Assembly: GCF_041886205.1 (NCBI RefSeq) | Contig: NZ_CP169029.1 | Origin: Escherichia coli | GTDB lineage: Bacteria > Pseudomonadota > Gammaproteobacteria > Enterobacterales > Enterobacteriaceae | DNA length: 64,000 bases | Reading direction: 5' to 3' (one strand) | In this document: one piece after another, positions 25,881 to 26,727 of the stretch | Layout of the letters: each line of letters begins with the position of its first letter | How positions within the stretch are numbered: position 1 is the first letter of the stretch | Notes under the pieces: generated by a model | What the model was told of the DNA's origin: nothing | Database searches by the model: none | The model's input: the letters and a program-made list of their open reading frames with translations, nothing else | Program-made: the position numbers and the translations under genes

Positions 25881-26727
25881 TCACATTATGCCCATGAAGC
25901 CATGTACGCCCATATACACACCGACTAAGCCAATCAACAGACTGGAAAAATAGGGGGCGCGTTTAGCGAGAGTGTTAAATCCGCTCCAGCGTTTTGCGAC
26001 CTGCTGAACGCTGATTGCTGCGCCAACGCCTACGGTGACAAGCGTTAACGCCAGGCCAATGCTGAAACTGACGACCAGTGTTGCGCCCAGTGTCAGGGCT
26101 TTCAACTGAATGCATATCAACAGCACGGTAATTGCTGCCGGGCAGGGGATAAGGCCACCGGTTAAGCCAAATAACAAAATTTGCCAGTTGGTGACCTCTC
26201 TACCATCAAAGCGTCGTTTAATGTCATTGGCATGGGCTCGTGCATGGGCATCCTGATACTCGCCATGTTCGTGATGGTGATGATGTCCATGGTCGAGGTG
26301 ATGTTCGTGGTCTTGATGATGTTCGTGATCGTGATGATGGTGATGATGCTCATAATCATGCCCGTGCATATTCTCCAGCCAGTTGCGTTCGCCGCGCCAG
26401 GTACGCCAGAACATCCAGAACGCGGTGCCAATAATGATCACTGCGGAAATCAGCTGGAGCCACGGTTCTGCTGATTGAGCAGTAAAGCGCTTACTGATCA
26501 CCATCCCGCCAAAGGCAATCAACCAGACCACCGCGGTATGCGAAATGGTTGCTGCCAGTCCGAGCATCACCGCCTGTTTAATGGTGCCTTTGGATGGCGA
26601 TGATAAACGCCGCCATCATCGTTTTTGAGTGCCCTGGTTCCAGGCCATGAAGCGCACCAAGTAAGATGGCGCTGGGGATGAAGAACCAGGCGTTTCCTTG
26701 CTGAAGAAGAGTTGTAAATTCGGTCAT
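25881..26727 (-). pseudogene. rcnA: Ni/Co efflux protein RcnA carrying a 1-nt frameshift near codon 45, with a long His-rich loop
   Basis: N-terminus MTEFTTLLQQGNAWFFIPSAILLGALHGLEPGHSKTMMAAFIIAI reaches a stop after ...QRHH. The rest (MLGLAATISH... with the HHHHHHDHEHH tract) is in another frame. An extra base sits around plus-strand 26592. Confidence 0.8.

Follow-up and report, generated by a model that had tools for sequence, protein, structure and literature searches.

A single surplus base in the rcnA gene of one Escherichia coli sequence raises a simple question: has a gene for nickel and cobalt efflux been lost, or has its sequence been misread? The gene lies in a stretch of 64,000 nucleotides, termed the window here (features in table 1). 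An earlier note on this DNA had placed one extra base at about position 26592, had read 45 N-terminal codons running into a stop after QRHH with the rest of the protein in another frame, and had offered two explanations: either Ni/Co efflux was lost in this strain specifically, or the sequence was in error. Its reading of the frames is borne out, and the CC doublet lies where it had placed the extra base. On the coding strand, the window carries GCCATCCAAAGG where other E. coli carry GCCATCAAAGG, and alignment to the alleles of ET201, 6EVA, ECCTRSRTH03 and K-12 isolates one surplus C (ATCGCCATCCAAAGG in the window versus ATCGCCATCAAAGG in the others). The reference sequence on which the note had relied is also correct, as the K-12 translation is …IAIKGTIKQAVMLGLAA… at the lesion site. 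In the native frame, rcnA is reduced to 49 codons ending …IAIQRHH*, and the residual 228 codons occupy a different frame. The ORF listing and direct reading agree on a 49-aa ORF that starts MTEF…AAFIIAI (45 residues; sequence MTEFTTLLQQGNAWFFIPSAILLGALHGLEPGHSKTMMAAFIIAI) and continues with QRHH and TAA. The remainder of RcnA is held in a 229-aa ORF on the minus strand (25881..26570), with a GTG start at 26570 and an ATG one codon further on. At the opposite end of the gene, the stop codon at 25881..25883 is TGA (protein end …GIM), whereas the K-12 gene continues with CGA before it stops at TAA (…GIMR). Each of these 3′ ends is common in complete genomes, and about one-third of a 60-genome sample aligns to just 843 of the 846 nucleotides.

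Table 1. Features of the rcn locus, in window coordinates.
Feature	Position	Strand	Details
rcnA pseudogene	25881..26727	−	847 nt, versus 846 nt / 281 aa in the intact allele
CC doublet with one-base insertion	26592..26593	−	coding strand ATC-C-AAAGG; single C in all intact alleles
N-terminal fragment ORF	26578..26727	−	45 native codons + QRHH + TAA (26578..26580)
Downstream ORF from ATG at 26567	25881..26567	−	228 aa + stop; RcnA residues 54–281
His/Asp/Glu-rich cytoplasmic loop, coding region	26256..26366	−	37 aa, 8 codons longer than K-12
Tandem 18-nt unit CACGAACATCATCAAGAC (HEHHQD)	26310..26327	−	first of two (26292..26327)
Tandem 18-nt unit CACGAACATCACCTCGAC (HEHHLD)	26292..26309	−	second of two (26292..26327)
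RcnR operator site 1, TACTGGGGGGGAGTA	26785..26799	−	N position 26789 is G; T in K-12 and ET201
RcnR operator site 2, TACTGGGGGGGAGTA	26765..26779	−	identical to K-12
rcnR, intact	26848..27120	+	90 aa, WP_000019944.1 in relatives
rcnB, intact	25321..25659	−	112 aa, WP_000153077.1 in relatives

Apart from its broken frame, the gene shows every sequence and context trait of the RcnA family that was checked. Removal of one C restores a 281-aa protein that matches NCBIfam NF007454 end to end with 558.8 bits (cutoff 195) and Pfam NicO (PF03824) with 242.6 bits (cutoff 27.7), both above the curated cutoffs. The central His-rich cytoplasmic loop of the family is present (21 His among 37 aa), as is the context of an rcn locus, namely a divergent rcnR, two TACT-G6-N-AGTA operators and a downstream rcnB. 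One unbroken frame over the full domain is not: it is interrupted behind codon 45, codon 50 is a stop, and positions 1–46 and 54–282 of the NF007454 profile fall in separate frames. Since its frame is broken, the feature is a pseudogene of the RcnA/NicO family and not a functional member. The part that is cut off is no dispensable leader. The 49-aa piece scores 30.6 bits against positions 1–38 of the NicO profile, with a per-position information content close to that of the whole domain, which marks it as conserved within the fold. The motif HGLEPGH also falls in this piece. The 228-aa ORF lacks this first conserved segment, which corresponds to NicO profile positions 1–44. A search for a solved structure of the RcnA family, by which the lost N-terminus might be judged, returned spurious matches only.

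Single-base indels are the commonest type of assembly error, and an artefact that conceals a truly intact rcnA must be weighed before any biological reading. The lesion (C to CC) lies outside any homopolymer, however, and the same surplus C has been recorded elsewhere. A megablast search with 1,101 nt around rcnA against 5,426 complete RefSeq E. coli genomes, a set that excludes the window's own genome, gave one match at 100% identity: wlxctx60 (NZ_AP045833.1), from bear faeces in Japan, where PGAP annotates the identical feature (AC6IW3_RS13155) as an 847-nt pseudogene, ‘rcnA, frameshifted’. An 80-nt query centred on the surplus C finds exact matches in two of 5,360 complete genomes, wlxctx60 and 2017.06.05CC (NZ_AP027790.1), which is from human faeces in Viet Nam and whose rcnA (AABK28_RS08530) PGAP likewise calls frameshifted. 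The remaining 5,358 have a near-identical 80-nt context without the surplus C. In a public assembly collection of 15 billion proteins, the exact 49-aa frameshift peptide occurs in 89 blocks, the longest contigs with this peptide ranging from 2 kb to 1 Mb and none exceeding that size; 105 public contigs have the exact 228-aa downstream product, and 137 have the repaired intact allele. The allele is thus already public, as a pseudogene in RefSeq and as two fragment proteins in GenBank, although a search of one literature library for rcnA frameshifts in E. coli found nothing about it.

These records are not copies of a single one. Identity of 100% over 1,101 nt had suggested that the window might be the wlxctx60 record itself, a notion that was rejected: the reverse-complemented window differs from the matching 64 kb of wlxctx60 at about 280 positions and has, in addition, an IS1 of 768 bp. 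As the window differs to this extent (about 280 SNPs and the IS1 insertion) from both complete-genome carriers, it represents a third independent sequence. Nor is the wlxctx60 assembly error-ridden, since rcnA is the sole pseudogene among approximately 50 coding sequences in the 64 kb that match the window. An assembly artefact should not recur in independent assemblies, and this one recurs in two complete genomes, from different laboratories and hosts, and in the 89 blocks of the public collection; the absence of the surplus C from the 5,358 other genomes with near-identical context also speaks against it, and the single haplotype among all carriers examined fits inheritance. We regard an artefact as having a negligible chance of being correct. 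With the same C replicated across independent assemblies, sequencing error is in practice ruled out as the cause of the frameshift, and that half of the alternative posed by the earlier note falls away. The other half, loss of Ni/Co efflux, stands as a reading of the gene's broken frame, but without the qualifier ‘strain-specific’, as the allele is lineage-wide.

What remains is to ask how the allele came to be where it is. The window, the two complete genomes and four drafts were compared over window coordinates 16.6–36.7 kb. All seven have the surplus C, and they are separated by 0–4 substitutions over about 12 kb (16.6 to 29 kb); wlxctx60 and 2017.06.05CC share one local haplotype, with identical ThiM, ThiD and RcnB proteins. 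The closest sequence found is the draft GCA_015286525 (AAXCVT010000006.1), which equals the window over the whole 20 kb (16.6–36.7 kb) except for the IS1. 6EVA (NZ_CP138428.1) carries the same haplotype without the surplus C and with eight private substitutions, which places it as sister to the carriers. On these comparisons, the rcnA frameshift is common to a clade of close E. coli relatives from several hosts and countries. The surplus C probably arose as a single mutation in the ancestor of this clade and was then passed on. We consider it very likely that this rcnA is a real loss-of-function allele transmitted by vertical descent.

The members of the clade differ in other respects. The window genome is set apart from wlxctx60 and 2017.06.05CC by SNPs, by an IS1 in yehB and by a divergent tract at 29.4–36.7 kb, and 2017.06.05CC in turn differs from the window in a third HEHHQD unit (+18 nt) and a G8 tract in operator site 2. 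In the divergent tract (about 29,400..36,700, towards the gat operon, fbaB and yegT), about 60 substitutions unite the window and GCA_015286525 against the other members compared, namely wlxctx60 (in part of the tract), 2017.06.05CC, GCA_032369805, GCA_024612335 and 6EVA, which mostly have the base of the outgroup ET201 at the positions concerned; the tract looks like a recombination import in the window's sub-lineage. The IS1, a complete 768-bp copy at 22942..23709 within the fimbrial usher gene yehB, has InsA and InsB ORFs and 23-nt terminal inverted repeats, and is flanked by a 9-bp target duplication, GTCTTTCCG, at 22933..22941 and 23710..23718. It is missing from wlxctx60 and from the otherwise identical GCA_015286525, and 6EVA has IS1 copies elsewhere in the yeh operon. 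In the carrier GCA_012251385 (1..9353), the thiM/thiD side beside rcnR has been swapped for a different stretch, with genes for an integrase, for a HamA-domain protein that forms a Hachiman-like defence pair with a DEAD/ResIII helicase, and for a resolvase. This stretch looks like an island that has inserted next to rcnR. Towards the start of the window (about 1..15,400, minus strand as the record has it), the wlxctx60 annotation gives three large tandem DUF4132 paralogues of about 1,215–1,250 aa each, followed by yehK, yehL, yehM and yehP. Both the copy number of the paralogues and their domain labels (WGR + DUF4132) vary among related strains, which suggests rearrangement among them.

The consequences for the cell can be predicted from the state of the locus. 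Duplication of C after codon 45 shifts the frame and ends translation at codon 50, so that at best a 49-aa peptide would be made, possibly with a 228-aa protein by re-initiation at the ATG 10 nt past the stop. The latter would be without the first conserved NicO segment, and neither fragment should be able to export metal. Deletion of rcnA from K-12 sensitizes cells to NiSO4 (PMC10942458), and carriers of the frameshift are predicted to resemble such a deletion, with greater sensitivity to Ni and Co and raised cytoplasmic Ni/Co. We infer loss of rcnA function, and with it Ni/Co hypersensitivity, from the coding sequence.

The rest of the locus is intact. On the minus strand, the genes lie in the order thiM – rcnR <> rcnA – rcnB – yehA. 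RcnR and RcnB do not differ from the proteins of relatives whose genes are intact, and the two operators conform to the RcnR consensus TACT-G6-N-AGTA (PMC7055735); the earlier note was right to describe rcnB and the operators as intact. From K-12 the operators differ solely at the unconstrained N of site 1, where G replaces T. Metal would still de-repress RcnR, yet the gene that it drives would be dead. No terminator-like site was found between rcnA and rcnB, so premature termination of translation in rcnA may be polar on rcnB, which would possibly be under-expressed. In wlxctx60, the one carrier in which this was checked, nikABCDE-nikR is intact, which points to uptake and NikR control having been kept while efflux was lost; nickel balance would then rest on repression by NikR of an intact nikABCDE importer.

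Some useful RcnA activity might persist in spite of the lesion, by either of two routes. Ribosomes could slip by +1 at CAA-AGG, within the stretch ATCGCCATCCAAAGGCACCATTAA, and make a full-length protein with the change K46Q, or they could re-initiate at the ATG at 26567 and make the 228-aa product, whose loop would still buffer Ni/Co. AGG is a rare codon in E. coli and provokes +1 shifts, and here this rare Arg codon comes directly after the insertion. For the second route, the stop lies just 7–10 nt from the internal GTG and ATG, a weak Shine–Dalgarno-like AGGCGG precedes the internal ATG, and no carrier seen has a break in the downstream frame. The literature allows for RcnA to work either as an exporter or, by way of its loop, as a chelator (PMC11247825). 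Against slippage, the lesion (GCGTTTATCATCGCCATC CAA AGG CAC CAT TAA) has no slippery heptamer, and inspection of it for recoding of the prfB type found neither a P-site codon capable of full re-pairing, as tRNA-Gln would move from CAA to AAA with a mismatch at the first position, nor an upstream Shine–Dalgarno-like stimulator. There is no A/T run at the lesion for transcriptional slippage. A programmed site should be conserved among homologues, and the surplus base is missing from 5,358 of 5,360 complete genomes, hence there is no conserved recoding site. Against re-initiation, the loss of NicO positions 1–44 with HGLEPGH would probably disturb the topology of the product. The PGAP annotation of the feature as a pseudogene speaks against bypass in general. 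A +1 shift, whether programmed or leaky, and slippage during transcription were set aside for lack of an A/T run, of a stimulator and of site conservation; residual activity by bypass is kept as a rival, and a very unlikely one. In 105 contigs the 228 downstream codons still form an open frame without any change, but at 0–4 SNPs per 12 kb the clade is too young for an open downstream frame to inform either way.

Taking the allele as a genuine loss of function, rcnA of the window should be annotated as a pseudogene and not repaired as an error. Carriers are predicted to be Ni/Co-hypersensitive and dependent on NikR control of uptake alone, and the lineage would offer a ready natural knockout with which to study the role of RcnA in the gut.

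The frameshift is one of several disruptions of rcnA. In 6EVA the gene (SE698_RS13155) is annotated by PGAP with an ‘internal stop’, caused by TGG>TGA at the equivalent of window position 26415; although 6EVA shares the local haplotype of the window and is also inactivated, its lesion is independent and it has no surplus C. The 6EVA assembly combined MinION and Illumina reads with Pilon polishing. A truncated RcnA of 67 aa, ending one residue before W68, is found on 71 contigs, E. coli O2 included, ZF31 (NZ_CP047455.1) keeps just the first 111 nt of rcnA, adjoining yehA, and truncated forms are also listed from Shigella. The existence of several null alleles, that of the sister strain among them, indicates that the gene is repeatedly dispensable. 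Visible disruption of rcnA affects about 1 in 60 of the complete genomes sampled, with no out-of-frame length in the sample. From these sequences, rcnA looks like a conditionally dispensable gene that is occasionally lost, and its decay in this commensal lineage would be a further case among metal-resistance genes of that kind.

Recurrent loss could instead be adaptive and not neutral: in a nickel-poor gut, a lower basal efflux would retain Ni for [NiFe]-hydrogenases, and null alleles would be selected repeatedly. Several of the nulls are independent (the +C clade in 89 blocks, TGG>TGA in 6EVA, the 67-aa form on 71 contigs and the near-complete deletion in ZF31), and the frameshift allele is spread over hosts and countries, with a number of records similar to that of the intact allele from which it derives (89–105 versus 137 contigs). 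Database counts are biased by clone sampling, however, rcnA nulls are rare overall at the 1 in 60 given above, and drift acting on a conditionally dispensable gene predicts recurrent loss equally. Selection for loss in place of neutrality seems unlikely on this balance, and its fuller form, in which commensal E. coli have time and again gained an advantage from inactivating rcnA, because hydrogenases retain nickel in a nickel-poor gut, is a proposition that we rate as distinctly improbable. If adaptive loss were true, the variable operator G-tracts (G6, G7, G8 and G9) might represent follow-on decay, or tuning, of an RcnR switch without purpose.

The operator tracts do vary among these strains. 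In the carriers, the G-tract of site 2 is mostly G7; 2017.06.05CC has G8, and GCA_024612335 is one G shorter. 6EVA has G9 in both tracts, versus G7, and this would, if real, break the TACT-G6-N-AGTA spacing; the longer tracts may be a homopolymer error of its assembly, hybrid and Pilon-polished though it is. A claim that such variation is special to the pseudogene clade was dropped, given that approximately 16% of complete genomes deviate from the 70-nt operator region of K-12, and the variation may reflect the usual instability of homopolymers in place of decay that followed the loss of the gene.

The second peculiarity of this rcnA is the length of its His-rich loop, which the earlier note had transcribed correctly and had described as longer than in K-12. 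The window loop is HGHDYEHHHHHHDHEHHQDHEHHLDHGHHHHHEHGEY (37 aa), and that of K-12 is HGHDYEHHHHDHEHHHDHGHHHHHEHGEY (29 aa). TRF reports a period-18 array at 26265..26339, and the 18-nt unit occurs twice in the window, once in K-12 and three times in 2017.06.05CC, although rcnA is already broken there. The proposed codon-repeat expansion is sound in so far as the copy number of this unit varies; the difference may be either an expansion here or a contraction in K-12-type alleles. The comparison of His-tract lengths across strains that the note had called for was made in two samples, each of 60 genomes taken at even spacing from about 5,360. Approximately 85–87% of them have the K-12 length; the other lengths sampled differ from the window by −63, −45, −42, −9, +3, +9 and +15 nt, and all the length variants seen are in frame, as multiples of 3 nt. 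The class to which the window belongs is a minority of at most about 5%, with at most 286 of 5,363 genomes at least 95% identical over the loop query. Loop length is polymorphic through changes in the copy number of short repeats, evidently by repeat slippage, and the long loop is a separate in-frame polymorphism that is independent of the frameshift. These alleles form a natural series of loop lengths with which to ask if length matters; there is no hint here that it does.

Set beside known systems, the feature is a thoroughly studied gene with an ordinary frameshift of one base. The rcn locus of K-12 has the same gene order and the same two RcnR operators as the window, and rcnA of K-12 (b2106, yohM) is near-identical in sequence outside the His-rich loop; the window differs in the surplus C after codon 45, in its longer loop, in its last codon and in the N of operator site 1. 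Variable length of the central cytoplasmic His-rich loop is a trait of the RcnA family, and in the homologues of cable bacteria the loop measures 100–123 aa and is fixed in a clade with a proposed nickel-related role (PMC11247825). The 8-codon difference in the window is, in contrast, an ordinary repeat polymorphism within a species.
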